Of a stretch of 64,000 bases of DNA, positions 2,436-34,519 are shown one piece after another. Both the position numbers and the translations under genes were made by a program. Location of the stretch: positions 150,792-214,791 of the forward strand of contig DAIQMY010000001.1 of NCBI GenBank assembly GCA_036788695.1, given 5' to 3'. Below the pieces are notes generated by a model. That model ran no database searches and was not told the DNA's origin. It saw nothing but the letters and a program-made list of their open reading frames with translations. Source of the DNA: Candidatus Levyibacteriota bacterium (GTDB lineage Bacteria; Patescibacteriota; Microgenomatia; Levybacterales; GWA1-39-11). Every line of letters starts with the position of its first letter. The stretch's first letter is position 1.

Positions 2436-4424
2436 TCATTCATTATTCACCTTGTTGTTATCTGTAACAGGAGACGTAATAGGCTGTTGTGTAATTGGTT
2501 GAGATGCCTGTGGAGTAGGTTTCATAGCGGGTTGCGTTAGAGGCGCTTCTGTAGGAGGAGCTTCCTGTTTTGCGTCTGCTTCTTTTATGAATTGTTCTGC
2601 TGCCTGCGTATTTGTTCGTTCTGCCTCATCCAAAATGTCTTGAGGTTTAGAGGTGACCAGTTGATACTCAAAGTTTGATGCCAAAAATTGAGCTGTTAAG
2701 TGGTTTTGCCCTGCAAAAAAAAGTCCCTCTCCAACCTGCGCTGTTAGCAGAAATTGCTTTTCACCTTCTGATAAGTTAAGGGTTGAGGCGAGCGTTTCTA
2801 CCTCAGATGAGTTTTGTTTTAACAGGACCTGCATAGAAGAATTAGATAAGATTGCCTTGCCATAGTCGGAAGACAGGAAATCTTCTATGTCTTGGGTAAG
2901 CGTTGTAACTCCCAGGTAATATTTTCGTGCTCGCTTTGCAATTCCTTGCAAGAATGCAGCAGAGTCAGGATTTTTCATAAGATACCATGCCTCATCTACT
3001 ATTAATATACGTTTTTTCAATTTAGTTCTTACTCTGTTCCAAATAAAATCTAATATTACCTGCATGGCGACTGGCCTAAGAGATTCTTCAAGCTGTTTTA
3101 TTGAAAAAACGGTAAGTTGATTTTTAACATCGTAGTTAGTCTGTGAGTTTAATAGTCCTGAGAACCCTCCTTTGATGTACTTTTCTAGTCTAAACGCAAG
3201 GTCCTTGGCATCTGTTTCTTCCATATTCAAAAGTGTTTTATATAAATCCTCAAGAATGGGTGGTTCATTGCCAAAAGTTGATGGGTCAGGGATTATCCCT
3301 TTTTGCTTGTAACACAAAACGAGCGCGCGGTCTAAAATTGCCTCCTGTGTTGGAGAGAATTCACCAAGCATAATCTTGAGAAGTGAGTGGAGGGATAAAA
3401 ACTTTATTCCAAGCTGCGCTTCTGATCTGTCATCTGAAAGAAGGGCAAACGGATTAATTTTTACCTCAGAGTCTTTTGAAAAAGATATGTATTCTCCATC
3501 GAGCGCATGGCAGAGTGCTTTATATTCATCCTCAGGATCTATGATGAGAATTTCTGTGTCAAACATCATTTGACGCAACACCTCAAGCTTAACTAGAAAT
3601 GATTTTCCAGAACCAGATTTCCCAAAGACAACAGAATTTGCATTCTCAAATGAGAAGCGATCCACAATGATAAGTGAATTATTTAGCGTGTTTACTCCAT
3701 AAAAAATACCGTTTGGTTGAGATATTTCATAGGATGTGAAGGGAAACGTTGAGGCAACGGATGTAGTATCCATGTTTCGGGTAATAAATAATTTATCCTC
3801 CCCCAGGGGGAGTGTTGTTTTAAATCCGTCCTCCATTTGAAGAGTAGCGGGTTTTATAACCAGCAAGTTTGAGGCAAGTAGGGAAGTGAGTTCATTCGTT
3901 TTCTTATCAAGTTCATCAACTGTTTTTGCTGAAAGTGTAACATAGAGTCCAAATTGAAAGAATCGTTCAAGTCCCCGCGCTAACTCTTCACGCAGGGCGA
4001 TCGCGTCCTCAAGGGATGCTCGAACCTTAGGATCAGGTTCTATGCCGTTTTTCATATCTGATTCAATCGTTGCTTCCATTTCTCCAATTTTGCGTTTCAA
4101 ATTGGAAAGAATATCCCGACTTTCAACTGGGTATATAAACATAGATACGTTCATGGTTTCCTTGTAGTCTATAAGTATAGAAAGCCAATTTGGAGAAACT
4201 TCGCGCGGATAGTCAATTACAATAAACGTTCGGTAGAAAGCGTCTCCTACGCGAATATATTTAAAATCTACCTCAACGGATGAGGGAGCAAGAAGATCTA
4301 TCAGAGACACAGACCCACTTTTTAATTTCCCAACATCGTGTGTGATTTGAGGTTGTGGTGCAGATTGAGCTGTTTGTGCAGGTGCACTTTTTTCTGTTTG
4401 TTTTTTCTTTCCTAGTCCTAGCAT
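2436..4424 (-). CDS. virB4: VirB4/TrbE/CagE-family T4SS ATPase, C-terminal ATPase portion (662 aa)
   Basis: Walker A VVFGKSGSGKSF and Walker B RILIVDEAWYL (the DEAW motif is typical of VirB4). N-terminal stretch LIDLLAPSSVEVDFKYIRVGD...YPREVSPNWLSIL resembles the VirB4 middle region. Own RBS AAAGGAG 9 nt upstream of ATG. Confidence 0.8.
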   Translation of the reverse strand: MLGLGKKKQTEKSAPAQTAQSAPQPQITHDVGKLKSGSVSLIDLLAPSSVEVDFKYIRVGDAFYRTFIVIDYPREVSPNWLSILIDYKETMNVSMFIYPVESRDILSNLKRKIGEMEATIESDMKNGIEPDPKVRASLEDAIALREELARGLERFFQFGLYVTLSAKTVDELDKKTNELTSLLASNLLVIKPATLQMEDGFKTTLPLGEDKLFITRNMDTTSVASTFPFTSYEISQPNGIFYGVNTLNNSLIIVDRFSFENANSVVFGKSGSGKSFLVKLEVLRQMMFDTEILIIDPEDEYKALCHALDGEYISFSKDSEVKINPFALLSDDRSEAQLGIKFLSLHSLLKIMLGEFSPTQEAILDRALVLCYKQKGIIPDPSTFGNEPPILEDLYKTLLNMEETDAKDLAFRLEKYIKGGFSGLLNSQTNYDVKNQLTVFSIKQLEESLRPVAMQVILDFIWNRVRTKLKKRILIVDEAWYLMKNPDSAAFLQGIAKRARKYYLGVTTLTQDIEDFLSSDYGKAILSNSSMQVLLKQNSSEVETLASTLNLSEGEKQFLLTAQVGEGLFFAGQNHLTAQFLASNFEYQLVTSKPQDILDEAERTNTQAAEQFIKEADAKQEAPPTEAPLTQPAMKPTPQASQPITQQPITSPVTDNNKVNNE

Positions 4425-4463
4425 GTTTTACAATAACTCCTTTTTGTCGTATGTAGCGTATTT

Positions 4464-5078
4464 CTACACAATAATATTTTTAACGTCACTTGTTGAAAAG
4501 TCCACATTCATGCTTGTCTGGTTGAAAAGTTCAAAAAATACTCGTCCTAACTCTTCAGCCTTAATGACTCTACTGGAAAGCCCTATTCGTTCAATTTGCG
4601 TCATAACATTTGTTCTCTTGCTAGCTATTGCATCCGCGGTGCGTGCTTCGTGCGTCTTTTTACTGCCTCCTGATGTTGGCCCTAGCTCGAGCGCATTAAA
4701 TGGGATTACCACATATGTTTTTTTATCTAGCAGCCCATCTTCTTTTATAAGTTCCTGGATGAAATCCTTGTAGAGCCTTAAGTGCTCAGCCACTCGTGCG
4801 TTTTGGGTAACGGTAATTTTGTGATCAAGAGATGAGACATATGATGAGAGATCAATTCTTTTGGAAACTATCACAATCTGGATTGCAAAAGAGAGAGAAT
4901 TTAAAAGCGACATATACCCATATATACGCGCGTTTTGTTCGTCTTGGGAAAGAAGAAAAAAGTTAACAGATGAAACTTCCAGGATAGAGCATGCATTTTT
5001 TCCTTTTAAAAATACCGTGTCATCCCGAATATCTTCGATCTCAATAAAGGATTGTGTTGTCGATTTAATTTTAGCCAT
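4464..5078 (-). CDS. Stand-alone VirB4 N-terminal (CagE_TrbE_VirB-like) domain protein, 204 aa
   Basis: IEIEDIRDDTVFLKGKNACSILEVSSVNFFLLSQDEQNARIYGYMSLLNSL resembles the N-terminal domain of Gram-positive VirB4 homologs (PrgJ/TcpF/TraE type). Sits directly upstream of the ATPase part on the same strand, separated by a TAG stop and a 39-nt spacer containing an RBS. Confidence 0.5.
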   Translation of the reverse strand: MAKIKSTTQSFIEIEDIRDDTVFLKGKNACSILEVSSVNFFLLSQDEQNARIYGYMSLLNSLSFAIQIVIVSKRIDLSSYVSSLDHKITVTQNARVAEHLRLYKDFIQELIKEDGLLDKKTYVVIPFNALELGPTSGGSKKTHEARTADAIASKRTNVMTQIERIGLSSRVIKAEELGRVFFELFNQTSMNVDFSTSDVKNIIV

Positions 5079-5086
5079 GGGCAGTT

Positions 5087-6154
5087 TTATAAAGTATTTT
5101 GTGCAACTCCAAACAATTCACGTCTTAATTTTTCGCGTTGGTCTACAGATATTACTTGAATAGGTTGAGCCACTGATCCATCAAGCGTTATTCTGGTATC
5201 TTGAAACTCTTGTTTTTTTAACGTGTCCTCAAGGTGCAGGGTATATGTTCCGCTTGGAAGTGGAGTTGCGGCTCTAAAAAAACCATTTGCGTCAGTTCGG
5301 AAGGTTCGGAGTGGAACGTTTTGCGTATCAAGCACTTCCACAATGATGTGGGGGAGCGGTTTTCCTCTTGGGTCAAGTATTTTGCCTTGTAAAATATTGG
5401 CTATGTCTATGCCTCCTACAGATACTTGAGAGGGTGCCACTGGAGGGGTTATCGGTTGCGTTTCAGCTACTGCATGAGGCGTAGGAGGAACAATTTGTGA
5501 TTGAGAAGCAGAAGATTCTGTTTGGCTTGTACTTTCCTGAACAGGAGGGACTGAAGTTTCCGTATGGGGAGCAGATAATTCCCCAGACGTTCCTTCTTGC
5601 GTGTGTATGGCAGAGGCTTGCGTTGTGGGAGTTTTTTCATCGGCCTTAATAACTCTATTCGTAAATCCGCCCTGCTGTGTTGTGCCATCTTTGAAGAGGT
5701 TGCTCACGTTTTCTACTTGAGACTTCTCATCAGCATCAGGCTTAAAATAAGAACTTGCAAGCTGATTAAAAAGTTTTGCTTTTTGTACTGCTGCGCTGTC
5801 TCCTGAATTTGAGTCAGTAACGTTAGTGTGCGACGGAGGGGTAAATGTAAAGTATGGCATTTGTACTCCGTGTTTTTTGTAAATATATTGATTTTCCGCG
5901 GGAATTGCCTTAAAGAAGTTAAAAAGCATCTTATCCATAGGTCTTCCATCAATAGGCACAAACGCAAGACAAAGCCCTACGCCTCCTGAGAGAAGCATAA
6001 AGGGAAGCTTTAGTAAAAACGGAATGGGGAAAAAATAGAACAAGAGTGCAAAAACCCCGCCACCTAAAAGATATAAAAATTGTTTTACCGTAACAGATCC
6101 TATAAGCCTAAATTTAAACCCTGTAACGTCTTGGGGGATAGGATGATTTTCCAT
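5087..6154 (-). CDS. VirB3/PrgI-like small T4SS membrane protein fused to a long Ser/Thr/Pro/Gln-rich linker and a C-terminal transthyretin/carboxypeptidase-regulatory-like beta-sandwich domain
   Basis: N-terminal FKFRLIGSVTVKQFLYLLGGGVFALLFYFFPIPFLLKLPFMLLSGGVGLCLAF gives two TM helices in the VirB3/PrgI arrangement. Position immediately upstream of VirB4 in the conserved VirB3-VirB4 order. C-terminal GKILDPRGKPLPHIIVEVLD...GTYTLHLEDTL resembles a prealbumin-like fold. Confidence 0.4.
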   Translation of the reverse strand: MENHPIPQDVTGFKFRLIGSVTVKQFLYLLGGGVFALLFYFFPIPFLLKLPFMLLSGGVGLCLAFVPIDGRPMDKMLFNFFKAIPAENQYIYKKHGVQMPYFTFTPPSHTNVTDSNSGDSAAVQKAKLFNQLASSYFKPDADEKSQVENVSNLFKDGTTQQGGFTNRVIKADEKTPTTQASAIHTQEGTSGELSAPHTETSVPPVQESTSQTESSASQSQIVPPTPHAVAETQPITPPVAPSQVSVGGIDIANILQGKILDPRGKPLPHIIVEVLDTQNVPLRTFRTDANGFFRAATPLPSGTYTLHLEDTLKKQEFQDTRITLDGSVAQPIQVISVDQREKLRRELFGVAQNTL

Positions 6155-6402: not shown

Positions 6403-6741
6403 ATGGAATTTACACCGGAAAAGAAAAAAACAGTAGAGAAAATGATAGTTGATTCAATGATAGACGCTGTAGGGGCAGGAATTGTTCCTGAAGAAGAGCT
6501 TACTAGTATCTCTGATTTTGTTTTAGCTCGAATAGATGCCATAAACAATGAAGATGAATTGGTTATTTTTCTTGTTGAACTTTCTCAAAAATGGTCATTT
6601 TTCTTACCGATTGAACGCTTCATTGAAGGTGAGGCGAAAGAGGCGGAAGATAAAAAGTCAGTAGATAAAGCAGAAAATCTTATAAAGGATGGACAAATAG
6701 ATCAAGCGCTGCAGGTTTTAAAGGCAGCAGAGGGAGCATGA
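6403..6741 (+). CDS. Small acidic hypothetical protein (112 aa), translationally coupled to the next gene
   Basis: ORF with ATG start; its stop overlaps the start of the 645-aa ORF (6741/6743). Highly acidic composition. Confidence 0.45.
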   Translation: MEFTPEKKKTVEKMIVDSMIDAVGAGIVPEEELTSISDFVLARIDAINNEDELVIFLVELSQKWSFFLPIERFIEGEAKEAEDKKSVDKAENLIKDGQIDQALQVLKAAEGA

Positions 6742-6742
6742 T

Positions 6743-8680
6743 ATGACAAAGAATATACAAACAGAGGCAGCAGCGCGTGCCATAACAAATAGAACAGAGC
6801 TAACTCCGGCTGAGCAGCAAGATAAACAAAAACAGCTCGCAGCAGGTGCTGCAAAAAGAAGTCTTGAAAAAAGACGTGAGGCCCTGGGTGGAGACGACCA
6901 TGGCTTTATGGAGGGAATGAGGAGTACAAAAAAAGAGACACTTGATGTGCCAACCGCAGATGATGCAGAGAAGGTAATTGAATCAGCCGCCAATACTCCT
7001 GAACAAAAAAGCGAAGCAAAAAAAATAGACGCAGTTTTGCGAGCAGTATTCTCAGGAGATAAAGCCTATCTTGAGGAACATCAGAATGCAACAAGTGACT
7101 CGTTAATTGCTCCTATTCGTGAAATGATGAGAAGGGACCCTGCCTTCAAAGAACTAGCAGATGCGATTGACAATAGTCCTGCTTCTTTCAATGAATGGGT
7201 TCAATTTGTGGCAGAGCAGTTAGATTCGGGGCGTAATCCAGGGGATAACAGGTTTGTGGACAATCTTCAGGCAAAGTATAAATCGTTTATGGAGAAGGAC
7301 AGAGAGGAATCGGGGGATAAGACGGCAATTCGAAGAAAGCTTGATATGCAAAAAGCAAAAGAAGACGCGCTAAACGATCAGTATCAGGCAAATATAAAAG
7401 AAGTTGAAGAAAATCGAGCACGAAAAGAATCTTTTTCTGATATGGATAACGGTGCGGGAAAAGAATTAAAGGAGATAACTGATACGGTTGCTAGTGAGGC
7501 TGAAGATCGGAAGCGGATAGAGGAGGAGATTGCGGAATTAAGAGTTGATAAAGCAAGAGTAGATGAAGATGCGCATAGCACTAATTTGTCAATAAGAAGA
7601 GAAGCCGAGCAAACACTGCGTCGATTGAGGACGAATATTTCTGATAAAGAAAAAGAGCTTGCCCCATTTAAAAAAAATATTGTTAAAAAAGAATCATTGA
7701 CTTCTGAAATGAAAGGATTAAATAATACGCACGAAAAACTTTTGCAAGATCAAGGAAGTCTTGCAACTCAAATTGAAACGATTCGTGAGGAGCGAACAAA
7801 GATAGAGAAACAATTAAATATCGGAGGCGGTAAGGATAAGGAGGACTTCGTAGGGGACCTGCGAGCTATTATGGGTGATGCTTTTCGGGACACTATGATT
7901 GCCAGATTTGATGCACAGCAGGCAGGCGTTAGTGAATCCTTTAAGGAGCTTATTGCGGAAGCACGCGATCCTCACGTTAAGGCAGCACTGGAGCAGCTGC
8001 AAGATAGTCATAATCGTTGGAAGGATTGGGATTCGGTCTGGAAAACAAAGCTGAAGGTTCCTTATGGTCGCAAGGAAGAGCCAAGTATGCAAAAGGATCT
8101 TATGAAGGAAGATGTAGACATTTTGCTTAAAGAGGGTCCTGAGAGTTTTATGAGAAGATTTCTTAGCCACAAGATGGATCCGGATACGAAAAACGCAGGT
8201 AATCCTCAGGGAATGATGTACTCTAAAGAAAAGATAGACGAACTCATTTCAGATAAAGACTTTATGGCTGCGGTACAGCCAAAGGCTGCCGGGTTATTAG
8301 TTCGCCAGGCAGTACAGACAAACGTATTGTCTGAGCGTCAAATGGCTGAGTTGAGAGATACAGAATGGGGAATGAGTGCGATTGAAAGTGCGCTGATGTT
8401 GGATAAGACTGCAGTTGAGAGCGGTAGAGCGCATCAGGCAATAGACTACATAAAGAAGCATCCAAAATTTGCGTGGTGGATGCTTCTTACGTTTTTATGG
8501 CCACCAGCAGGATTATTCGTTGCGGGAGTATACGCAGGTAAAGAGGTTGTGTCTGGAGTATTTCCGGGTAAAAATAAAGAGCATGCCGGAGGGCATGATA
8601 AAAAGCCTGTGAATGTTGAGCCTCCTCCATCACCTCACAATGAGCAGCAGTTTGCGCCTAGCCTCGCACCTGCGCATTAA
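6743..8680 (+). CDS. Large charged coiled-coil protein (645 aa) with a hydrophobic segment near the C-terminus (HPKFAWWMLLTFLWPPAGLFVAGVYAG); unknown function
   Basis: Long ORF with K/E/R/D/Q-rich, helical-looking sequence and a C-terminal TM helix. No recognisable catalytic motif. Confidence 0.55.
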   Translation: MTKNIQTEAAARAITNRTELTPAEQQDKQKQLAAGAAKRSLEKRREALGGDDHGFMEGMRSTKKETLDVPTADDAEKVIESAANTPEQKSEAKKIDAVLRAVFSGDKAYLEEHQNATSDSLIAPIREMMRRDPAFKELADAIDNSPASFNEWVQFVAEQLDSGRNPGDNRFVDNLQAKYKSFMEKDREESGDKTAIRRKLDMQKAKEDALNDQYQANIKEVEENRARKESFSDMDNGAGKELKEITDTVASEAEDRKRIEEEIAELRVDKARVDEDAHSTNLSIRREAEQTLRRLRTNISDKEKELAPFKKNIVKKESLTSEMKGLNNTHEKLLQDQGSLATQIETIREERTKIEKQLNIGGGKDKEDFVGDLRAIMGDAFRDTMIARFDAQQAGVSESFKELIAEARDPHVKAALEQLQDSHNRWKDWDSVWKTKLKVPYGRKEEPSMQKDLMKEDVDILLKEGPESFMRRFLSHKMDPDTKNAGNPQGMMYSKEKIDELISDKDFMAAVQPKAAGLLVRQAVQTNVLSERQMAELRDTEWGMSAIESALMLDKTAVESGRAHQAIDYIKKHPKFAWWMLLTFLWPPAGLFVAGVYAGKEVVSGVFPGKNKEHAGGHDKKPVNVEPPPSPHNEQQFAPSLAPAH

Positions 8681-8699: not shown

Positions 8700-9056
8700 T
8701 TAGAGTTTCTCTTCTGTTTTCGGAGGACTTGTGAGTTGGTTTAAGTCAACGCCCGTGAATTGAGACAAAAGGTTTATCATGACAAATGACATCATGATAA
8801 TAACTAGCCCAATAATTGCATAGGTAAGTCTTTTTCTGGCATTGTCCACTTTTTCTTTATCCCCTGAAGACGTTACATATTGGTAGCCTGAGTAAATGAT
8901 AAGAAATACGGCAACTACGCCGGATAGGACTAGTGCTGCATTAATTACATTTTGTAAGACAATCCATATGCAGGATATGGTAGCTACTCCTGTTGCATCT
9001 GGAATTCCCTCCAATGGTCTTACACATTCTCCCCAATCTTCTGTGAATAAATCCAT
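8700..9056 (-). CDS. T4SS pilin-like small membrane protein (VirB2/TrbC-type, T4SS_pilin family), paralog 3
   Basis: Two hydrophobic helices flanking the loop YVTSSGDKEKVDNARKRLTYAIIGLVII. The same architecture and motif recur in three neighbouring genes. Confidence 0.6.
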   Translation of the reverse strand: MDLFTEDWGECVRPLEGIPDATGVATISCIWIVLQNVINAALVLSGVVAVFLIIYSGYQYVTSSGDKEKVDNARKRLTYAIIGLVIIMMSFVMINLLSQFTGVDLNQLTSPPKTEEKL

Positions 9057-9121: not shown

Positions 9122-9577
9122 TTATTGGCTAGTATTCCGAAGTGTAGGTATTTCAAACCCAGAAGTAAGGTAATTACCGGTAAAGATGTAAAGGACTGCG
9201 TTTATGATAACGTAGGCTAATATAACTATGATAAGTCCTACAATTGCTGCAACTATTGTAGAGCGTGCAGTATCAATTTTTCCTTTATCTCCGCCTGAAA
9301 GAATCCATCGAACGCCTCCATACAAAAGGAAAATAAGGGATAAAACAATTCCGATAATTATAATAGCGTTTATAATAAAAGCAATCAGTTGATTTGGTGA
9401 CACGTCAATATTCCCGATTGATTTAGGTGACTTAATTATTATAGGTTCAATATTCTGAGCAAATGCAGGGGTCGCTAGAACGGACATAAGAAGTGAGCCA
9501 AATGATACTGAGGCGGTATTTATTATTTTTTGCAAACTCATATGATTAATTAGAACATGTTTTTTTTTGCATGTCAA
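9122..9577 (-). CDS. T4SS pilin-like small membrane protein, paralog 2, with an N-terminal Sec-type signal peptide
   Basis: Core IFLLYGGVRWILSGGDKGKIDTARSTIVAAIVGLIIVIL. The track start at 9577 is TTG. An in-frame ATG at 9541 gives MSLQKIINTASVSFGSLLMSVLATPAFA-QN, a classic signal peptide. Confidence 0.6.
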   Translation of the reverse strand: MTCKKKHVLINHMSLQKIINTASVSFGSLLMSVLATPAFAQNIEPIIIKSPKSIGNIDVSPNQLIAFIINAIIIIGIVLSLIFLLYGGVRWILSGGDKGKIDTARSTIVAAIVGLIIVILAYVIINAVLYIFTGNYLTSGFEIPTLRNTSQ

Positions 9578-9583
9578 TAAGCG

Positions 9584-9913
9584 TTATTGTTTTCCTATGT
9601 CTTGTAGGACTTGCGCGCCCAGGAGTAAGCCCACAATTCTTACAATGATAAAGGATAGGAGGATAATAATAAGCCCTACTATTGCGTACGTGATAGTGCG
9701 TCTTGCGCGGTCCAGTTTTGCCTTATCTCCTTGAGACGTAATCCATAAAACTCCCGCGTATAAAAGAAAAATAAGAGACGCAATAATGCCTATGGTAACG
9801 AACAGTCCTAATCCGAAGTTAATAATATCAGATGGGGCGTTTGCGCCTGATGGGATATTTTCAGGTGTTTGCACGTCTCCATATCCGGGTATTTTTAAAG
9901 ATAAGTATTTCAT
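9584..9913 (-). CDS. T4SS pilin-like small membrane protein, paralog 1
   Basis: Core IFLLYAGVLWITSQGDKAKLDRARRTITYAIVGLIIILL. Its ATG directly abuts the stop of the upstream pilin-like frame (TAATATG). Confidence 0.6.
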   Translation of the reverse strand: MKYLSLKIPGYGDVQTPENIPSGANAPSDIINFGLGLFVTIGIIASLIFLLYAGVLWITSQGDKAKLDRARRTITYAIVGLIIILLSFIIVRIVGLLLGAQVLQDIGKQ

Positions 9914-9914
9914 A

Positions 9915-10401
9915 TTATTGAAAGCCTGGTATTCGCAAAATGTTTATACCTATAAACTCAAGTATCGCAATTGAGAGAATAATAAATATTAGTCCAGTGA
10001 TTGCTGCGGTTATTTGTTCCCGTGCTTGACCCACTTTTTCTTTGTTTCCCGCAGATGTCATGATGGTATATCCTGCGCGGATAAAGAAAAGGAGAGCTGC
10101 AACTCCTCCGATTGAGAGTACTATGGTAAAAATATCACGTACAAAAAATTGAGGCTCTGTGCTGATCTTTATTCCAAGTGCTGTTGGAATTTTTTTGCAA
10201 TACCCAGTTGTCTGATCTATATCTTGCTTATCGCAAAGCGCTCGGGGTTGAGACCATGGAATTGCAACTCCTAACTCTTTGCCATATGGATCTTTTATTG
10301 CTGTGCCTATTGTTCCTGTTTCTCCGCCGCTTGCTATTGTAAGCGGAATAAAGTAGTAGGTGAAATCGTTTTGTTCGCAGGTAAAAGTGTTTCCATTTTT
10401 T
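9915..10401 (-). CDS. Fourth T4SS pilin-like domain in an open frame of ~160 codons that lacks any ATG/GTG/TTG start; likely the C-terminal domain of a fusion with the upstream secreted protein via a -1 shift at an A8 tract, or else a pseudogene
   Basis: Manual translation of the minus strand gives ...KKIPTALGIKISTEPQFFVRDIFTIVLSIGGVAALLFFIRAGYTIMTSAGNKEKVGQAREQITAAITGLIFIILSIAILEFIGINILRIPGFQ*, which matches the pilin paralogs. The frame stays open upstream to a TAA at about 10423 and overlaps the last 20 codons of the 419-aa ORF in the -1 frame. The only in-frame Met lies inside the TM helix. Confidence 0.45.
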
Positions 10402-11557
10402 TTAAGTCCCGGCCGTCTTTAATTTTAAGAAGATATTTTCCTTCTGTAAGGGTTCCAAATACATATCCGTCGGCATCTTTTGATTCTGAACTGAGGAACA
10501 TATCTATCTCTCCTGTTCCATCTTCGGGTTTGGGGTTTGCGTTTACAACTAAGCATCTAGGCGCACTCTTGTAATCATTATCCAACCCTTCAACCTGTAG
10601 CCAATAATCATTATAAATATTTGAGTCCTTGCCTGATTTTATGTTTCTACCTTTTAAAATAATGGGTAGGGTGAATCCATTTTTTGTACTATTTGTATTT
10701 AGATTTGTGACAGTTTCCGCTTTTGGCTTTATAATCTCAGGGTAAAAGTGAGTTACGTAAAATACCGCATCCGCCTTTACATCATCAGGGCTTACGCTTT
10801 TACTATCTTTCCCCTGCGATAAATATACATGGTATGTTTTTCCTGCGTGAAACCAATCTCCAGAAGTGAACTGATTCGTTTCAGTACAGTCTTCTTTAAG
10901 TGTTTTTTCTCCATCCCCACACAACTTGCTTAGTATAACTATTCCGTCTCTTGGTTGCGCTTCTTGCCAGTCATCCTCCCCACAATCTTGAGGTTTACTT
11001 TTGAGGCAGTAGAAATATTTTGCGTTTTTAGTAGGATTGGAAAGATTAATAAATCGAACAGAAATATAAGGAACGCTTTCATCTATAAATGCTTGATTCG
11101 TTTTTGGATTTTTTGGAAGTCCTCTTGTTGCGCCCAGTCCCTTACAGATATAGTAAGATTCAGTAGTAATGCAGTCACTCAGGTTTGGATTATTAACTTC
11201 ATCTAAAAATCTGTCTTCGTCAGTTTTTCCCTCCTCGTTTGCACATGTACTTTCTGTAAAAAGAGTTGAATCATCAATTGTAATGGTAGATGTTCCTAAA
11301 GGTTTTTGTATTTTGCGATTTTGTGCCGGAATATCAAAGTACCTGCATAAATTTGTGCAGATATTGTCATCAGGGGGGACAAATGAGATGTCCTTTAAGG
11401 GCACTTCTTTCCCTTTAATAGTTTTAGTTACCAATTTTTGGGAAGAACATTCGCTTAGGTCTTGTCCGCTGAATTGAACACCCGTGGCGTATGTTGTAGC
11501 TGTTGTGAAAATTAAAAATAAGAAGAAGACAGGCAATAGCAGGAAAGTTTTCTTCAT
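10334..11557 (-). CDS. Secreted Cys-rich protein (about 407 aa from the internal ATG; the track ORF starts at a TTG at 11593); candidate pilus-associated adhesin
   Basis: Signal peptide MKKTFLLLPVFFLFLIFTTATTYATG. Numerous Cys residues suggest disulfide-rich extracellular domains. The 3' end contains the A8 tract (plus-strand T run 10396-10403) where a -1 shift joins the downstream pilin frame. Confidence 0.55.
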   Translation of the reverse strand: MKKTFLLLPVFFLFLIFTTATTYATGVQFSGQDLSECSSQKLVTKTIKGKEVPLKDISFVPPDDNICTNLCRYFDIPAQNRKIQKPLGTSTITIDDSTLFTESTCANEEGKTDEDRFLDEVNNPNLSDCITTESYYICKGLGATRGLPKNPKTNQAFIDESVPYISVRFINLSNPTKNAKYFYCLKSKPQDCGEDDWQEAQPRDGIVILSKLCGDGEKTLKEDCTETNQFTSGDWFHAGKTYHVYLSQGKDSKSVSPDDVKADAVFYVTHFYPEIIKPKAETVTNLNTNSTKNGFTLPIILKGRNIKSGKDSNIYNDYWLQVEGLDNDYKSAPRCLVVNANPKPEDGTGEIDMFLSSESKDADGYVFGTLTEGKYLLKIKDGRDLKKMETLLPANKTISPTTLFRLQ

Positions 11558-11598
11558 ATAACTATCATAGGAGGTTTTTTGCTCTAAAGTCAAGAAAT

Positions 11599-12930
11599 TT
11601 ATGGAAGAAAGCGGTATCCTCTACCTTTTATAGTAGTAAGATGTGTCGGGTTGTTTGGGTCTTCTTCAATCTTTCGTCTGACTCTGTATATGATTTGATC
11701 AAGTGCTTGGTCGGTCACGCCCTCACGTGTCTTTTCATCTGACCATACAGACTCTATTATTTCCTCTTTTGTACACACCTTATCAGTGTTTTGAATTAAA
11801 AACCGTAACAGTTTAAATTCTGATGGTGAGAGTATATCCGTTAGCGACTCGTTCCCTGCTTTTATTTCTTGAGTATCTGTGTCAAATGTTATTTTCTCAG
11901 TTGCGGGGTGTGGAAAGTGGGACAGATTTTTTTCAAATAAAGGAATTTGAATTTCTCCGTTCTGAACAAGATAAGAGTATTGCAGAAAAGAATCTTTTGG
12001 AGTATCTTTTGGGGATTTGAGAAGTATTTTTTGCTCAATTGGTATAAGCGAATTCCATATTTCAGTCAAAGCTCCTTGAATTGCAGCTTTTGAAAGTAAA
12101 AAAGTTGCCATATCCGCGTGCTTTCCCTCTTGAGCAAGCACAGTTTCAAGGGCTATTCTGGATAATTTTCCATGTCCCCCTGTAAGTTTTATAATTTCTT
12201 TGTGCGTTGCAGGACTAACCGTTCTTCCGCTCGTTTTCTCAAGATAGGCAAAGCGGAAAGCATTCGCCTCAGCGTCACAAAGGGGAAGGAAAACGTGGTT
12301 TCCTACGACAAATTCATAGAAATCCCCGTATATGCTAGGTTCCAATAACTCCTCAAGCGGTCGTTCTAGGGAGAAAACGCAAGAAAATCTATATTTTGCC
12401 CTATTTCGTAAAACATGCAAATCTGTAAAAAAAGAAGAACTTATCTGTGGGAAATAGGTGTCAAATCTATCAAAGAGAAGAACTACGGTTAGCTCCCGCT
12501 CTATAGACAAATAGTCTATGGCACGTTTTAACGCCTGAAAAAGTATTAATTCATCCTGAAAAGAAATCGCCTCCTTGAGAATGTTGTTTACCGCCTCTTG
12601 TTCTTCCTCCATCTTCCGTTCTGAAAAAGAGTAGGAAAGGGAGATAAGAATAAATTTTATTAGTTCGTAAAAATTTCTTCCCTTAATCTCTGATAGATCC
12701 ATATAGACAAAGTGGTACCATTTATAGTTTTCTCCTAGGTGAAGAACGCGCAAGGGATTATTGTAGGCTAAAAGCCGCAAGACGTTTGAACGACCAACTC
12801 CAGGAAGGCCGACAACTTGCGCGGAGTTTCCCTTTTGAACGTATGAGAGAATTTTATCTATCTCATGTGTCCTGGAGGATGGAGGATAAAGAGAGTCAAA
12901 ATGCATGGGTTCTGAGGCTAAAGTAGTCAT
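11599..12930 (-). CDS. Putative transcriptional regulator: N-terminal P-loop NTPase-like domain (AAA/STAND-like) plus C-terminal OmpR/PhoB-type winged-helix DNA-binding domain
   Basis: P-loop-like VVGLPGVGRSNVL. C-terminus TKEEIIESVWSDEKTREGVTDQALDQIIYRVRRKIEEDPNNPTHLTTIKGRGYRF matches the trans_reg_C winged-helix signature (W...V.V.I.RLR.K...........I.TV.G.GYR). Confidence 0.55.
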   Translation of the reverse strand: MTTLASEPMHFDSLYPPSSRTHEIDKILSYVQKGNSAQVVGLPGVGRSNVLRLLAYNNPLRVLHLGENYKWYHFVYMDLSEIKGRNFYELIKFILISLSYSFSERKMEEEQEAVNNILKEAISFQDELILFQALKRAIDYLSIERELTVVLLFDRFDTYFPQISSSFFTDLHVLRNRAKYRFSCVFSLERPLEELLEPSIYGDFYEFVVGNHVFLPLCDAEANAFRFAYLEKTSGRTVSPATHKEIIKLTGGHGKLSRIALETVLAQEGKHADMATFLLSKAAIQGALTEIWNSLIPIEQKILLKSPKDTPKDSFLQYSYLVQNGEIQIPLFEKNLSHFPHPATEKITFDTDTQEIKAGNESLTDILSPSEFKLLRFLIQNTDKVCTKEEIIESVWSDEKTREGVTDQALDQIIYRVRRKIEEDPNNPTHLTTIKGRGYRFLP

Positions 12931-13003: not shown

Positions 13004-16000
13004 ATGAATGAAAGATTTTTGCCACAAGAATTGACAGCAGGAAGGGTATCTTCTACACTTAATGTAAGGAGTACTATGCCAGAGCCACAAAAAGAAGAAC
13101 CTATTGTTCTCAAAAAAAATGAAGTGCATCCTCCCAGGATAAGTAATTCTCCACGACCAGAATCAATACAAGAGCTTATGCAAAGTCAGGCAGAACGTGA
13201 GGCGGCACGAGCCATAATGGAAGAGGCTCGGAAGCAAGGAAAAACATTATCTGAGGATGAAAAAAAAATGATTCTTGCTTCAGGAATTAAATTTCCTATT
13301 TTTGGAGGCGCTGATGTGCCAGAAAATGATTCTTATAATCCAGACAGTGAAGACAGTGAAGAAAACCAGGGCGGAGAGGTTATAAGAAGGGGTTTTGAGC
13401 TGCGACCCCCACGTGATCACGCCCATAACCCGCAACTCCTTGATGAGATAGAAAAATTTAATAGGGTAGCTGAGTTGGGTGTTGATTTTGATGATCTCAA
13501 ACGCGAGGCAGATAAAATCATGAATCTTCAGTCGTTAGACCCAAACAATCCGATTACATCTGAGCAAAGACAAGACCTTATAAGACAGCTTTCTAAGAAA
13601 GGACAAGAGATTGCGGAAGCAAGAATGAATAATCCAGACAGGTTTGGTTTTTACCTTGAAACCCAAGACTTACGAGAATTGGATGATGATCCTATAGCAT
13701 GGCTAGATTCTCAATTTGGTCAAATATACAATTTGTCTAGATTGGGGAATGAGTTAGATTCTCCCGCTTTGCAGCGTGCGCAGACAGAAGTACAAGAAGC
13801 ATCTGCATATCTCCTGAAGAGATTTGGAAAATTCAGAAAAGAGGGGATTAAAAATGCCAAAGACGTTGATCAGGCAAATCAGGATAGTAAGTTGTTGTTG
13901 GAATTTAATGAAACATTTATGATCAGGTTAAACCTCATTTTTGCCAGAACAGCAATTGATCAAAGAAATATGGAGCAAATACAGGGCGCAGTTGGAAGAC
14001 TAAGAACTTTAGGTTTTGCCGGAGCCCAAGCTTTTGACAATGGAGCAGTTGGTGCTATGTATAACCGTATGGAGGCGATGCTTGGGAATTTGCGGCTTGC
14101 AGAAGGTGGGCGTGAGCATCACCTTAATCCTATGTCTTTAAACAAGTTGCAGGAAAGAACTATAGACGAGCAGATAAAACTTGCAAAAGAAGGCGTAGGT
14201 ATATTTGCCGATAGATATAAGGATATCCTGTTGGATCCAAAGAAACGGTTGAATGCTGATGACGTATTAAAACGCGAGATAATCAGGTCTGTTAGAACAG
14301 CATACGATATTTTAGTTGTATCCCAGAGAGTAGCAATAGTTGCCGCTCGCGGTAATTATAGAGGAGACAGGCAGCAGTACTTCTCTGATAATGGTGGTGC
14401 TTTTGCTGTATTTAACTTGGAACAAATGACTATTAATAAGTGGGACCTATTAAATCATGAGGAGCAGGAGTTCTTTGATTTTCTCAAGCTTGACATGGCT
14501 ATTAATAATAAAAAAGGAGTAGATGTATCCGGGTTGACGCGTGAACAATTATTAGACTTAGGAGGAAGGCTATTTAGGGATCTGTATGTAGTTCCTGATT
14601 TTTATTCATCATCCTGGAGAATGAATGGAATGAGGGATCAGTTGGGGAGGGTAATTCAGTATAGGGCTGAAAACGACAAAATGATTGAGAAGTTGATAGA
14701 AGATCCTAATTTTACTCCCGCTGATGAAAGACTAGTGGAGTTGCAACGGCAAATGAGGGCAGACAAAGAAAGTTATATGAAGGCATGGGATGAGCGTAAT
14801 CCTTCAAATAGAATATTGCCGGGAGATCGCGAAATTGCGCAAAGACAATTTTCCCGCCAAATGTTTGAGAAAGTCTTAACCCGTGACCAAAGAGAGCTAT
14901 GCCTGAGAGTTCTGACACCGGACGACATGATGGATGTTATAAATGTTGCAATAAAAAAAGCCGGTACGCAGTTAGGAAAAGAGGTTGGAGACTTTGCTCT
15001 GTTTGTACAGTTGAAGCAAAGTTTGGGACATTTAGGACATCGCTCTGGATCACCGGAAGATATACGTAAAGAGACACGTAACTACAGGACTGAAGTTTGG
15101 GAAAAGATTCAAAAATTTAAAACAGAGGATGTTATACAGTTGATAAGAGGTCGGGCACGACCAGATATATACACGGAAGACTACAATAACTTGCGTGAGT
15201 TATATACGCTTTTTGAGAAAAATGATCCAGAATTGGGAGTACTAACTAATGAGCAGAAAGAATTGCAAAAAACGGGGGGCATAGAAGCATTTCATACATA
15301 TGATAGGTTTATTGAGAAATACGGTTCAGTAATTCAGGCAGTACGTCAAGACGCAATGCGAAACAGCTTAACTGGTCCAGAGCAGGTAGATATGACCAAT
15401 CTAAACCCTCGACAGATTGAAATGGTTAACAGAATGCTAGGGAATGGAGCAGCGGTTACTCTCCAAAATATCTATAAGGACATGAACAAATTTATAAATC
15501 GTCACGGTATTGTCAAGGAACTTGTGACAAGCCATAAGTACATAGATCTTTACAATAGAGTAATAAACGTAGAGGATGTAATGCTTGACACATTAGAATC
15601 AATACCTGAAAACGCGAGCTTCCAGAAGTTATCAGATTATTTCACTGCAGAGTCAGGAGCAGATGCCTTAAAACGAAACTTTAATGATATAGGAAATGCG
15701 GTGAATGCAGGGAACGCATTTATTAAATTTATCACAACTGAAGACAAGGAAGGAAGATTTAAAGAATCCAAAGTTATGAAAGGCGCTGTGGAGGCGTATA
15801 ATGGTCGCGGAAACGGTGCTGAAGTTATGCGATTTACCTATGGAACAGAATTATTATATTCTCTGCAGTACTATTGGGTTAATATGTTGCGTTTAGGTGC
15901 ACTTCCGTTAAGAAAGCCAACCTCAGTGAAGCAGGAGCATTATGGAATTGGAGCAAAATCCTTAACCAGAGAAGATGTCCGTGGAGATTTGGATCATCAC

Positions 16001-16195
16001 AAAACAGAATTTGTAGGACGAGGAGCAGATGCTGATCAGTGGTTTGTCCAATTAGAGGAGCTAACAGGGACAGATATGGAATCTACAATGAAGAGAAATG
16101 CGCTAACACTTCTGATATATGCGTTCTTGGGGATAGTGGTAGGAGCGCCGGTTGGGGCTGCGGCAGCAGCACTGGCAGGAGCGCAGAAAGGATAA
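13004..16195 (+). CDS. Very large hypothetical protein (1063 aa), charged and mostly helical, with an extreme C-terminal hydrophobic tail (LLIYAFLGIVVGAPVGAAAAALAGA); unknown function
   Basis: Uninterrupted 3.2 kb ORF with ATG start, divergent from the regulator gene. No recognisable enzymatic motif. Confidence 0.55.
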   Translation: MNERFLPQELTAGRVSSTLNVRSTMPEPQKEEPIVLKKNEVHPPRISNSPRPESIQELMQSQAEREAARAIMEEARKQGKTLSEDEKKMILASGIKFPIFGGADVPENDSYNPDSEDSEENQGGEVIRRGFELRPPRDHAHNPQLLDEIEKFNRVAELGVDFDDLKREADKIMNLQSLDPNNPITSEQRQDLIRQLSKKGQEIAEARMNNPDRFGFYLETQDLRELDDDPIAWLDSQFGQIYNLSRLGNELDSPALQRAQTEVQEASAYLLKRFGKFRKEGIKNAKDVDQANQDSKLLLEFNETFMIRLNLIFARTAIDQRNMEQIQGAVGRLRTLGFAGAQAFDNGAVGAMYNRMEAMLGNLRLAEGGREHHLNPMSLNKLQERTIDEQIKLAKEGVGIFADRYKDILLDPKKRLNADDVLKREIIRSVRTAYDILVVSQRVAIVAARGNYRGDRQQYFSDNGGAFAVFNLEQMTINKWDLLNHEEQEFFDFLKLDMAINNKKGVDVSGLTREQLLDLGGRLFRDLYVVPDFYSSSWRMNGMRDQLGRVIQYRAENDKMIEKLIEDPNFTPADERLVELQRQMRADKESYMKAWDERNPSNRILPGDREIAQRQFSRQMFEKVLTRDQRELCLRVLTPDDMMDVINVAIKKAGTQLGKEVGDFALFVQLKQSLGHLGHRSGSPEDIRKETRNYRTEVWEKIQKFKTEDVIQLIRGRARPDIYTEDYNNLRELYTLFEKNDPELGVLTNEQKELQKTGGIEAFHTYDRFIEKYGSVIQAVRQDAMRNSLTGPEQVDMTNLNPRQIEMVNRMLGNGAAVTLQNIYKDMNKFINRHGIVKELVTSHKYIDLYNRVINVEDVMLDTLESIPENASFQKLSDYFTAESGADALKRNFNDIGNAVNAGNAFIKFITTEDKEGRFKESKVMKGAVEAYNGRGNGAEVMRFTYGTELLYSLQYYWVNMLRLGALPLRKPTSVKQEHYGIGAKSLTREDVRGDLDHHKTEFVGRGADADQWFVQLEELTGTDMESTMKRNALTLLIYAFLGIVVGAPVGAAAAALAGAQKG

Positions 16196-16207
16196 AACAT
16201 AAAAATT

Positions 16208-17932
16208 TTATCTTCCAAGCATTCCTTTAAAGAATTTTTTCGCTCCTCCAATAGCTTCAGGTGTGGTTGATCCGGCTTTATATTCTGCCTTTGCTCCAAA
16301 CGCCATTTCTTTGACACCACTAATACCTTTTCCTCCTACTGCCTGGGAAGCGCCAAAGGATGTCCTAATATCTTTTAGTCCAAAGTCCATAGCGCCAACT
16401 GCCTTTCGGGTTCTATCAAGTATACTTGGCATGGATATGATAAAGCCAAAGCCTATAAATGCCGCTATAGCAGGACTTCCGCCGACCGCGTCACCTATAA
16501 GCGGAGGAGAGAAGAGCCCACCTTGACTTCCTACGTTGCTCATAATTGTTTTCCCAAGTAATATTACGCCAAACGCCATAGGAAAAACTGATAAATGGCC
16601 CATGAGATGCCGTATCCAACTAGAAAATCCTAATTTACTTCCCGGAAATATTCCAGCAGTTATCCAGAGGGGAGCAACTATTACATCTATGAGAACATAG
16701 ATAAAAGATTTTATAAGCGTAAACCATACGCGGAACAATGAGAATATAATAGCAATGAGTATTATTAAAAATGTAACAATAGTAAAAAGGCTGATAATCG
16801 CTGCCCTGAAGAACGATTCAACAAAATTACACCCTCCTCCCGCAAACAACCCTCCTATGGGCGTATCCCTTAGCCATCCTCCCAATCCTGGCACATATCC
16901 CAATGCTCCTACGCCCGCTGTGACCCCAATTTTCCCTAGATCTACGACTCCACACCCAATAGAGCTGACGGCATTAAAGGGGGTGAAGAAGACCTGGAAA
17001 AAAGATGAGATGGTAGACTCTAAAAAGTCTATTGAGATATTTCCTAAAACCTTGCTAATGCCCCAGGAAGTTTGCCCGGCGATCCCTATAATTCCGGGAA
17101 TATGATTTATACCGCTCAGATTTGGTGTGTCTATACTAAATGATTTGTTTACTACGCCAAATACGGTAGAGGAGGTGCTAACATTTGTTGGTATAAGACT
17201 ATTAAATGTTAGAATAACAAGATAAAGGGTCACATACATAAAATCTATAAGAAGTCCGGCGATTGCGTAAGAAAAAGTGACTAAAATAAGCGCTATTATC
17301 ATTTTGGGGATTTGGTTTTGAATACTCATAACCGTACGTGCATCAATTTTTACCCTGAACATAATTGCAAGTCCCACAATAGTAAACCCTAAAACAAAGG
17401 CGAGGTATGCAATATCTCTAAATCGTGCCCATATTCCAACAAGCGGTCGTAACCTGTCAAATCCTACTCCGTTTTCTTTAGGGTCATTCTCTGCGTAAGC
17501 GCTGCGTGCTACGCCAAAGTTTCCTGCCATATATGCTGCGTAGTCCACTCCGGATACTGGTAGAGTAAAGGTTTCACCTATAAGTCTTCCCATGACCTGT
17601 GTTGCTCCTCCTCCTTGGGCCTCATATCCTATTTGTCCACTTTTTAGATCTACCCCCAAACAGGTTTTTTTTGGGTCTAGAGGGTTATATCCTGAAAGCA
17701 CGCAGACTGTGCTTGCTAGTGTATTGATGAGTGTCGCTTGAGTAAGCGTATTAAGATTTTGAGGAACTTGAGGGTTAACATTTCCATACAGCATTTGATT
17801 ATTCATTGTTGCGACAGTTGGATAGGTAGTTGCAGAAGGAGTAATTATGGGTGCTTGAGCAAGAATGGGTTTTATACTGCTTGCAATAAGAAAGAAGACA
17901 AGAACGTACAGAATATGTTTTAGTTTTCTCAT
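16208..17932 (-). CDS. Polytopic membrane protein, VirB6/TrbL-like candidate, with a signal peptide and an N-terminal extracytoplasmic domain followed by at least six TM helices
   Basis: Internal ATG at 17932 gives signal peptide MRKLKHILYVLVFFLIASSIKPILAQA (the track start at 17977 is TTG). Multiple long hydrophobic helices and Gly-rich loops, and its position in a T4SS-like island. Family assignment is by architecture and context only. Confidence 0.4.
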   Translation of the reverse strand: MRKLKHILYVLVFFLIASSIKPILAQAPIITPSATTYPTVATMNNQMLYGNVNPQVPQNLNTLTQATLINTLASTVCVLSGYNPLDPKKTCLGVDLKSGQIGYEAQGGGATQVMGRLIGETFTLPVSGVDYAAYMAGNFGVARSAYAENDPKENGVGFDRLRPLVGIWARFRDIAYLAFVLGFTIVGLAIMFRVKIDARTVMSIQNQIPKMIIALILVTFSYAIAGLLIDFMYVTLYLVILTFNSLIPTNVSTSSTVFGVVNKSFSIDTPNLSGINHIPGIIGIAGQTSWGISKVLGNISIDFLESTISSFFQVFFTPFNAVSSIGCGVVDLGKIGVTAGVGALGYVPGLGGWLRDTPIGGLFAGGGCNFVESFFRAAIISLFTIVTFLIILIAIIFSLFRVWFTLIKSFIYVLIDVIVAPLWITAGIFPGSKLGFSSWIRHLMGHLSVFPMAFGVILLGKTIMSNVGSQGGLFSPPLIGDAVGGSPAIAAFIGFGFIISMPSILDRTRKAVGAMDFGLKDIRTSFGASQAVGGKGISGVKEMAFGAKAEYKAGSTTPEAIGGAKKFFKGMLGR

Positions 17933-18029
17933 AGGGCAGGTAGTTTTAGTATGGCTCAAAAAGCAACAAAAAGTCAAGGAATATATAAGTAGGGGTTTTT
18001 ATTGACAACTATATATAAAACAGGGTATC

Positions 18030-25525: not shown

Positions 25526-25972
25526 ATGAAAATTTTTAATAAACAAGCACCAGGAAATTTTAATGTTGAAGAGAGATATGAGGCGGGAATTGTTCTTCAG
25601 GGTCAAGAGGTGAAAGCCATAAAATTAGGGCATGCGGATCTAACCGGATCATACGTAAAACTTTTGGGATCTGAGGCGTATCTTATAAATTCCCGTATAT
25701 TCCCTTATGAATATGCGCGAGCGCAAGGTTATCAAGAGACAAGAACTAGAAAATTATTACTTCATAAAAAAGAATTATTAAAGTTAAAAAATAAACTTTC
25801 TGAAGGGAAACATACTTTAGTTGGTCTTTCTCTTTATGATACGAAAACAGGACTTGTAAAGATAGAGATTGGGCTTTCAAAAGGGAAAAAGAAACATGAG
25901 CGGGAAAAGGACGTAAGGCGCAGAGAATTAGACCTGCAATCCGAAAGGGAGTTTAAAGAAAAAAACTACTAG
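25526..25972 (+). CDS. smpB: SsrA-binding protein SmpB
   Basis: EAGIVLQGQEVKAIKLGHADLTGSYV and overall SmpB-like sequence. The tmRNA gene lies immediately downstream. Confidence 0.9.
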   Translation: MKIFNKQAPGNFNVEERYEAGIVLQGQEVKAIKLGHADLTGSYVKLLGSEAYLINSRIFPYEYARAQGYQETRTRKLLLHKKELLKLKNKLSEGKHTLVGLSLYDTKTGLVKIEIGLSKGKKKHEREKDVRRRELDLQSEREFKEKNY

Positions 25973-26058: not shown

Positions 26059-26459
26059 GGGGATGCAATGCATCGACAGGAATTGCTCTTTTACAACTGC
26101 AAGCCGGCGATGGTTCACAGCCGTAAAATAGGACCAAAAATACACGGTAAGTTTAATCTTACCCAGGGTCTCAAACGCGTTTTCGCGGATAGAGACATGT
26201 TTAAAGTAGGGCAACCTGCTTTTAACTTCGCTTAATAGCGCCTTGCTTACGCCCTTTCTTTTCTTAACGGATAAGCGTAGGTAAAAACCTTGTTAAGATA
26301 GGATTCAAGAAGTGATTAAACTTGAATTAGAAAAATTAGATCTTGGAACTGTTTCCCCTGTCAATTGGGTCAGAAATAGTTCGACAACAAAAAATTGACT
26401 ACGCTTGTAGATGTTTTAAAAAGTAGTTTTTGGACGGGAGGTCAAACTCCCCATCTCCA
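26059..26459 (+). ncRNA. ssrA: tmRNA (ssrA), about 401 nt, one-piece
   Basis: 5' GGGGATGCAATGCATCGACAGG (tRNA-like 5' end). 3' GGACGGGAGGTCAAACTCCCCATCTCCA (T-arm plus acceptor strand complementary to the 5' GGGGATG). Candidate tag ORF GCG GAT ... GCT TAA TAG (26185-26238) encodes ADRDMFKVGQPAFNFA followed by a double stop. Confidence 0.75.
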
Positions 26460-26466
26460 CACTTTA

Positions 26467-28281: not shown

Positions 28282-28288
28282 AACTCCA

Positions 28289-28531
28289 TTATACAAAAAT
28301 TGTTACAAGAAGCAGTAGTAATGTTCCAAAAATAACGCTATATGCTATAAATTTAAGAACAGGAGAGAATGAAACCTGATTAACAAGTTTTGTAAGGGAT
28401 GAGATTTGACGCGTTAAAACTATGGTGAATAGTAAAAATAGCAACTCTAATAACACCAGAGCAATTTTTATGAAAACATCAGGTGAGTTTAAAAAATTAG
28501 TAACGTTTGTAATTATATCTTCTAGGCTCAT
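28289..28531 (-). CDS. Small membrane protein, hypothetical
   Basis: Short ORF with two hydrophobic helices. The internal ATG at 28531 is the probable start. Confidence 0.35.
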   Translation of the reverse strand: MSLEDIITNVTNFLNSPDVFIKIALVLLELLFLLFTIVLTRQISSLTKLVNQVSFSPVLKFIAYSVIFGTLLLLLVTIFV

Positions 28532-31018: not shown

Positions 31019-31078
31019 GGGAGTAATAATAATAACAATTTTTACCTATGCTTACAACCCGGGGAAGGAGGTTGTGGG

Positions 31079-31150
31079 TGGGCGCGGCAGGATTTGAACC
31101 TGCGACCAATTGTGTATAAGACAACCGCTCTACCACTGAGCTACACGCCC
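31079..31150 (-). tRNA. tRNA-Ile with anticodon UAU (decodes AUA), 72 nt
   Basis: Reverse complement GGGCGTG-TA-GCTC-AGTGGTA-GAGC-G-GTTGT-CTTATAC-ACAAT-TGGTC-GCAGG-TTCAAAT-CCTGC-CGCGCCC-A. Clean cloverleaf with a 7-bp acceptor stem, U33, anticodon TAT, A37 and discriminator A. Confidence 0.7.
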
Positions 31151-31205
31151 AAAAACGAAACTGTGGTAAATTATAGCACGAGAAAGGTAAATATTCGATT
31201 CGTAA

Positions 31206-34172: not shown

Positions 34173-34253
34173 GCATCCATGATATCACCTATGCATTCTT
34201 TTGGCAATTTCACAAACCTAACAGAAGAGTAACAAGATGAAACGAGTAATATG

Positions 34254-34496: not shown

Positions 34497-34519
34497 CATT
34501 ATTATAATTCTCTTCTTTT

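Follow-up and report, generated by a model that had tools for sequence, protein, structure and literature searches.

A one-base deletion in one metagenome assembly divides a conserved ectodomain-pilin gene of Candidatus Levybacteria

The pilin array and its interrupted first gene

The window, the whole stretch of 64,000 nucleotides analysed here, contains a T4SS-like gene cluster with an associated series of pilin genes (Table 1). The order of genes is a Trans_reg_C regulator, a large pilin, three small pilins, two unannotated genes on the opposite strand, and then PrgI-like, TrsD/TraC-like and VirB4-like genes; relatives with 67-96% protein identity have the same order. The large pilin gene is the first of the four-gene pilin array and lies about 5.5 kb from the VirB4, TrsD and PrgI homologues. 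The putative regulator is encoded directly upstream on the same strand, and in relatives it always adjoins the large pilin gene, which encodes an ectodomain and a pilin domain fused in one protein.

Table 1. Features of the pilin array and the neighbouring T4SS-like cluster (window coordinates)
Feature	Coordinates	Strand	Description
Whole ectodomain-pilin gene	9915..11557	-	547-aa protein; signal peptide, Cys-rich beta-sandwich ectodomain and C-terminal T4SS-pilin hairpin; 1-nt deletion in the window
Secreted Cys-rich upstream ORF	10334-11593	-	419 aa from TTG (11593); 407 aa from ATG (11557)
Truncated upstream frame, GenBank HMS22282.1	10334..11557	-	407 aa; last 20 codons out of frame, METLLPANKTISPTTLFRLQ and stop
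Downstream -1 frame	9915..10418	-	167 open codons (9918-10418) and stop (9915-9917)
A8 tract with missing G	10396..10403	-	G absent between plus-strand 10402 and 10401; intact codon AGA = R386
Ectodomain, beta-rich	10269..11188	-	Residues ~124-430; tandem Ig/FnIII-like sandwiches; AF2 pLDDT 80-96
PF18895 T4SS_pilin domain	9954..10142	-	Residues 473-535; Pfam 35.3 bits, cut-off 26.6
Small VirB2-like pilin paralogue	9584..9913	-	109 aa; PF18895 28.1 bits; conserved synteny
Small VirB2-like pilin paralogue with signal peptide	9122..9541	-	PF18895 30 bits; 139 aa as called in other assemblies
Small VirB2-like pilin paralogue	8700..9056	-	118 aa; PF18895 45.9 bits
Putative regulator	11599..12930	-	Weak N-terminal AAA_16; OmpR/PhoB-type Trans_reg_C winged helix, 74.6 bits
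T4SS-like cluster core	2436..6154	-	Pfam, NCBIfam, gene table
PrgI/VirB3-like with CarboxypepD_reg domain	5087-6154	-	
TrsD/TraC-like	4464-5078	-	
VirB4-like ATPase	2436-4424	-	

As deposited, the large pilin gene is divided between two reading frames. The run of eight T on the plus strand (T8) reads as A8 on the coding strand, in the context GAC TTA AAA AAA ATG GAA. The upstream ORF terminates 20 codons past this tract, its product ending in DLKKMETLLPANKTISPTTLFRLQ, while the downstream frame, in the -1 relation, opens only seven codons ahead of the tract and supplies residues 387-547 when the protein is intact. The downstream frame contains no ATG, GTG or TTG before its first TM helix; the first such codon is the ATG of MTSAGNKEK, which lies within the pilin domain. 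Restoring one base at the tract yields a fused product of 547 aa whose C-terminus matches the Pfam family PF18895 (T4SS_pilin). At the composition of the window, the probability of about 170 codons without a stop is ~1e-5, and the open downstream frame is thus not a product of chance. The A8 tract alone is ordinary, as the window (37.5% GC) has 38 runs of A or T of at least eight nucleotides.

A preliminary description of this locus had reported the A8 tract, the -1 relation of the two frames, the end of the unshifted frame after 20 codons and a pilin frame with no start codon ahead of its TM helix, and all of these, including the coordinates, were verified. It had also placed about 170 open codons upstream of the pilin domain; the open stretch is real, but this figure spans the pilin domain as well, rather than the upstream part alone. 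A fourth pilin with a separate start was considered and ruled out, given that ATG, GTG and TTG are absent and that the relatives are all fused.

The intact gene in other assemblies and in relatives

The restored fusion is identical to a database protein of 547 aa (P0001) at 546 of 547 residues, the sole difference being DLRKNGNTF in P0001 and DLKKNGNTF in the base-restored model. At the nucleotide level, the contig of P0001, NODE_17 (193 kb) of the ENA assembly ERZ794922, which was assembled independently from the same genome, taken as four overlapping pieces that jointly cover window positions 3915-60025 (56,111 bp), aligns with 0 mismatches and one gap, where it reads TTAAGAAAAAATGG against TTAAAAAAAATGG in the window. 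A blastn alignment of 13,644 bp that includes the site has 0 mismatches and this 1 gap, and the ORF on the otherwise identical contig is intact at 547 aa. The intact allele at the tract is AAGAAAAAA (A2-G-A6), not A9. Loss of the G merges A2 and A6, which makes the A8 tract, and with it the apparent slippery heptamer, a by-product of the lesion.

The 407-aa product is recorded from NCBI only, as HMS22282.1 of the TPA MAG of Candidatus Levybacteria to which the window belongs (locus tag PKA38_00810), on a contig of 460,793 bp. Neither the 407-aa nor the 419-aa product had an exact match in the contig index, and in a sequence-cluster look-up the 407-aa form was absent from the Logan and ENA records. 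The 599-aa ORF at 26497-28296 likewise had no exact match, probably owing to a different choice of start codon. The intact protein P0001 was found on four contigs, two of them of 0.2-1 Mb. Flanking proteins of identical sequence occur on six to seven contigs, three of which are of 0.2-1 Mb, and two of these three carry P0001. Logan contigs from runs SRR2107210 and SRR2107211 match the window with 100% identity over the overlapping parts; a literature search returned no papers on these two runs or on ERZ794922. Of the large assemblies that represent this clonal genome, the TPA MAG alone is broken. The k-mers GGGACTTAAGAAAAAATGGAAAC and GGGACTTAAAAAAAATGGAAAC distinguish the alleles across the tract, and a trans-frame product would carry the peptide DLKKNGNTFTCEQNDFTYYFIPLTIASGGETGTIGTAIK in place of the unshifted tail METLLPANK. 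Scans of the GTDB species-representative genomes and the JGI metagenomes for GACGGCCGGGACTTAA and AAAAAATGGAAACACTTTTACC separated by zero or one nucleotide (N0-1) gave 0 matches; the species is in neither collection, hence these scans provide no allele counts.

Relatives carry the gene in one piece. All 20 homologues aligned (37-96% identity to P0001) are contiguous across the junction, with G373 and Y375 invariant before it and C394, F399, G415, D423, P424, E428, C442, G452 and C454 invariant after it. Likewise, at 20 loci in GTDB genomes (29-87% identity) a single-frame tblastn HSP crosses residue 386, and in all but one of these loci the fusion gene is followed by one to three small pilin paralogues. 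When 1.84 billion cluster representatives (50% identity) were searched with a profile, 320 matched at E <= 1e-30; among the best 150 of these 320, most are 400-650 aa in length, with an unbroken match that extends from the ectodomain through the whole pilin hairpin. Judged by these sequences, the gene is strongly conserved and syntenic down to 29% identity. Homologues with a contiguous fusion ORF, which had been suggested as a check on the preliminary description, were thus found in both the 20 homologues and the 20 GTDB loci. The same description had taken the overlap segment for genuine protein, which is borne out by its conservation and by the invariant residues from C394 to C454.

The site itself falls in a variable loop of the 20-homologue alignment. 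The codons of relatives at this position read TTA AGA AAA AAT, TTA AGA AAG AAT, TTA AAG AAA AAC AAA AAT or CTA AGG CAA AAA GGA, and no relative has an A8 or A9 tract or a conserved heptamer at the homologous position. Lysine is tolerated at residue 386, as P0003 reads DLKKNKNG.

The architecture of the intact protein was modelled with AlphaFold2 from the 20-sequence alignment (mean pLDDT 70.5). In this model, an N-terminal signal helix is followed by a variable segment of about 100 aa that is poorly modelled, and then by Cys-rich tandem beta-sandwiches, which form the confidently predicted part of an extracellular domain of about 430 aa overall. A conserved linker, IPTALGIKISTEPQ, joins the ectodomain to two helices (469-501 and 506-540), which form a hairpin about a short charged loop, TSAGNKEKVGQAREQ (SAGNKEK). 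By its HMM score above threshold, its two-helix hairpin and its T4SS core neighbours, the C-terminal domain belongs to the PF18895 family. The match to PF18895 is precomputed for every homologue, and a match to the NCBIfam Mbov_0395 pilin-like family (E 2e-5) is below the cut-off. Furthermore, a loop motif, S-x-G-x-K-x-K...AR, is common to the fused hairpin and the three small pilins (31-35% identity).

R386 is placed by the model in the turn between two long strands (373-388 and 391-409), where the domain has a pLDDT of 86-96, and the deletion parts 11 Cys from three conserved Cys. Given that the cut falls in a folded domain and separates these cysteines, the truncated 407-aa product is unlikely to fold or to be functional, as far as the model indicates. 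Searches beyond the family were less informative about the ectodomain: a sequence search of the PDB with the family profile gave nothing meaningful (best E 0.8), fold searches of the ectodomain against the PDB returned generic beta-sandwich matches only, and no similarity in sequence or fold to the T4SS adhesins and tip proteins PrgB, VirB5 and CagL was found.

Origin of the missing base

The gene is a single conserved frame and the fusion is real. The deletion is unique to the TPA MAG assembly, and the real gene is read in one frame with no recoding. On the evidence of assemblies, not reads, the missing G is probably an assembly or consensus error at an A-rich spot of low coverage. The G of the AGA codon for R386 would have been lost in the assembly consensus, which would have shifted the frame and produced the A8 tract. 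In the Logan assembly of SRR2107210, one contig ends in CTTAAGAAAAA, G included, inside the A6 run, and the next begins 24 nt downstream without overlap. Chance would rarely put a contig end only a few bases from the site (roughly 0.5% for contigs of 4-18 kb, by our estimate). From this break, read support is taken to be thin at the site, which makes a consensus error plausible in another assembler.

The form of the break also bears on its cause. A clean allele bubble in SRR2107210 was considered and rejected, as a 24-nt gap corresponds to 54 missing 31-mers and appears to fit a coverage gap better; the non-overlapping gap looks more like a coverage hole than a two-allele bubble. The break could nevertheless reflect true mixing of alleles rather than low coverage. 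Compared with the indel errors and pseudogenising frameshifts that occur at A/T-rich tracts in MAGs, the present case is similar in that one base in 56 kb splits a conserved ORF and in that a single assembly has the broken version. It differs in that the lost G interrupts two A runs, rather than changing the length of a pure homopolymer. Short-read data classically err in the length of homopolymers, whereas the base lost here is a single G flanked by A runs, an observation that counts against an artefact.

Less probably, the missing G is a genuine mutation, and the window holds a null (pseudogene) allele of the large pilin present in the population of the MAG. Frameshift inactivation of surface proteins is common. 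With the stop 20 codons later the pilin domain would not be made, and loss of the surface protein or pilus might be advantageous and so selected. The deposited sequence does carry the deletion, and two alleles present side by side could account for the contig break in SRR2107210. However, over 56 kb the window differs nowhere else from the assemblies that have the G, and the truncated product is absent from the Logan and ENA assemblies of the same clonal genome, which derive from several runs. The strong conservation and synteny of the gene among relatives down to 29% identity also speak against a null allele.

A third reading, and a very unlikely one, accepts a real deletion and regards the new A8 tract as a contingency or slippage site that restores a full-length protein with R386K in a fraction of cells or transcripts. 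Restoration could proceed by A8-to-A9 slippage in replication or transcription, or by an occasional -1 ribosomal slip on A_AAA_AAA. Poly(A) transcriptional slippage rescues frameshifted genes in endosymbionts, A_AAA_AAA is a valid zero-frame slippery heptamer, and the site lies in a variable loop where lysine is tolerated (P0003). However, this reading presupposes that the deletion is real, the assemblies and protein databases searched yielded no A9 allele, and a stimulatory structure is absent. In addition, the A8 tract occurs in no relative, which argues that it was not selected. In its most specific form, in which a recent real deletion has made a constitutive ectodomain-pilin gene dependent on slippage, with R386K arising only after slippage, the proposal is fainter still; if true, it would provide a snapshot of the origin of a contingency or recoding site.

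Slipped-strand phase variation at an A8/A9 homopolymer had been among the explanations initially offered for this locus. Contingency loci undergo slipped-strand phase variation of surface proteins at homopolymers, and the locus resembles them in being a surface-protein gene with A8 in its coding region. Unlike in such loci, the alternative allele is AAGAAAAAA rather than A7 or A9, and the tracts of relatives are interrupted. Across the assembly and protein collections searched, A2-G-A6 was the sole alternative, and neither A7 nor A9 occurred. As the alternative allele in these collections is not a length variant, classical homopolymer phase variation is effectively refuted.

The remaining explanation supposes that a programmed -1 frameshift has evolved here to control how much free, secreted Cys-rich protein is made relative to the ectodomain-pilin fusion. 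The -1 frameshifting sites of dnaX and of IS elements have an A_AAA_AAG-like heptamer with SD-like and hairpin stimulators. The window resembles these in its in-phase A_AAA_AAA heptamer, which follows the X_XXY_YYZ pattern in the zero frame (TT-A_AAA_AAA-TG), and in the -1 relation of its frames, features that exist in one sequence only, the TPA MAG assembly. Stimulators, on the other hand, are lacking. The 96 nt downstream of the tract fold no better than shuffled sequences (z = +0.29), and the sole downstream hairpin starts about 35 nt past the tract, in contrast to the functional distance of 5-9 nt. Upstream, no SD-like stimulator was recognised: GGC CGG GAC codes for the conserved G-R-D, with synonymous changes among relatives. 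The two-frame layout and the slippery site are conserved in no relative: a single frame is seen in the 20 homologues, at the 20 GTDB loci and in more than 100 cluster representatives, and the slippery site is missing even where protein identity is 96%. Furthermore, the junction cuts a beta-hairpin within a folded domain, rather than falling at a domain boundary. On these sequence comparisons, programmed -1 frameshifting is ruled out for practical purposes, and with it the proposal that frameshifting sets an adhesin to pilin ratio, since the pilin domain has no start of its own in any relative. The option that the preliminary description had placed last, a fusion gene concealed by an indel, is in essence correct, as the two frames are one ectodomain-pilin gene.

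An ectodomain-pilin family beside Patescibacteria T4SS genes

HMS22282.1 (407 aa) probably represents a protein of 547 aa annotated in truncated form, and a corrected gene model is a by-product of this analysis. The locus also provides a cautionary case, in which a one-base discrepancy in a MAG produced a "textbook" slippery heptamer.

In the intact protein, the signal peptide would direct export of the ectodomain by the Sec pathway. The first helix of the hairpin would then stop transfer, the lysine-rich loop would remain cytoplasmic under the positive-inside rule, and the second helix would re-insert into the membrane. The predicted topology would place the N-terminus and its attached domain facing outward, as in VirB2-type pilins. 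By analogy, such a topology would be in keeping with a minor subunit, a tip subunit or a surface protein anchored in the membrane. From the architecture, we infer a possible role as a pilus-tip adhesin.

According to a survey of Patescibacteria T4SS (PMC12102498), VirB2-like genes occur in arrays of 2-11 and are abundant in Microgenomatia, and PrgB-like adhesins were not detected in Patescibacteria. In a second study (PMC10633639), a pilin series in a T4SS cluster is essential for the epibiotic growth of Southlakia epibionticum. The present array resembles those described in these two sources in its PF18895 domain, its tandem arrangement by T4SS genes and its Microgenomatia-type (Levybacteria) genome. 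It differs from them in the N-terminal ectodomain of about 450 aa (of which about 300 aa is beta-sandwich), whereas the pilins described in the sections consulted are small; the ectodomain-pilin fusion does not figure in those sections.

The family to which the large pilin belongs is uncharacterised yet well populated, with 320 strong clusters at 50% identity. In its members, a VirB2-like pilin hairpin is covalently linked to a beta-sandwich ectodomain that measures about 300-450 aa, and the Levybacteria member leads a pilin array beside a Patescibacteria T4SS. Because the survey (PMC12102498) reports no PrgB-like adhesins in Patescibacteria and the pilin series is essential for epibiotic growth in a cultivated relative (PMC10633639), the ectodomain-pilin family is, on its architecture, a reasonable candidate for a component of host contact.

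Assembly break and record names at the pilin locus

In the Logan contigs of run SRR2107210, an independent assembly from a single run, the sequence is broken at the frameshift site itself, with the end of L017 and the start of L019 falling at approximately 10372-10402 of the window. L017 ends within the A6 run, past the G, and L019 begins 24 nt further on with no overlap, a break suggesting that read support at this site is low or heterogeneous. Among the GTDB genome records carrying this Patescibacteria-type pilin locus, many 'MAG TPA_asm' entries (L021, L022, L024, and others; binchicken/SRP isolates) are titled 'uncultured Gammaproteobacteria bacterium', and these titles look like mislabelled organism names.

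Possible additions to the pilin and T4SS repertoire

One homologue of the large ectodomain-pilin protein, P0016 (626 aa), has an additional Cys-rich tail of about 55 residues (…CTAGGGFCDPGTCTSGNPIGSCGTGVVCCSP) beyond its pilin hairpin. Extracellular add-ons can thus be borne at the C-terminus as well as at the N-terminus. Large conserved proteins encoded on either side of the pilin array (Table) match no Pfam or NCBIfam family, and their genes are kept in strict synteny in relatives, with 67-96% identity between the proteins; they may be T4SS components that have so far escaped recognition. The DUF8128 protein, encoded about 20 kb from the T4SS cluster, is possibly a divergent coupling-protein-like ATPase.

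Table. Further genes of the window, by position
Feature	Position	Strand	Details
Conserved proteins flanking the pilin array	6403-8680; 13004-16195; 16208-17977	+; +; -	112, 645, 1063, and ~574-589 aa
smpB	25526-25972		Directly upstream of tmRNA gene
tmRNA	26059-26462	+	Rfam RF00023, 105.8 bits
tRNA-Ile	31075-31151	-	Anticodon TAT
DUF8128 protein	31206-33638	-	810 aa; faint TrwB_AAD_bind/TraG-D_C matches
tRNA-Ser(GCT), standard	34253-34345		Divergently oriented relative to Ser-type tRNA(ACT)
Ser-type tRNA	34412-34497	+	Long variable arm; 7-nt anticodon loop TTACTAA, anticodon ACT (A34)
Nickel superoxide dismutase (Sod_Ni), then S24/S26-type peptidase	41499-42241	+

tRNA and oxidative-stress genes

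In bacteria, A34 is normally limited to tRNA-Arg(ACG), making the ACT anticodon of the Ser-type tRNA unusual. The presence of tRNA-Ile(TAT) implies that AUA is read by a UAU tRNA, and not by a lysidine-modified CAU tRNA. The peptidase encoded after Sod_Ni is probably its maturation protease, and an oxidative-stress module of this kind is notable for a reduced Patescibacteria genome.
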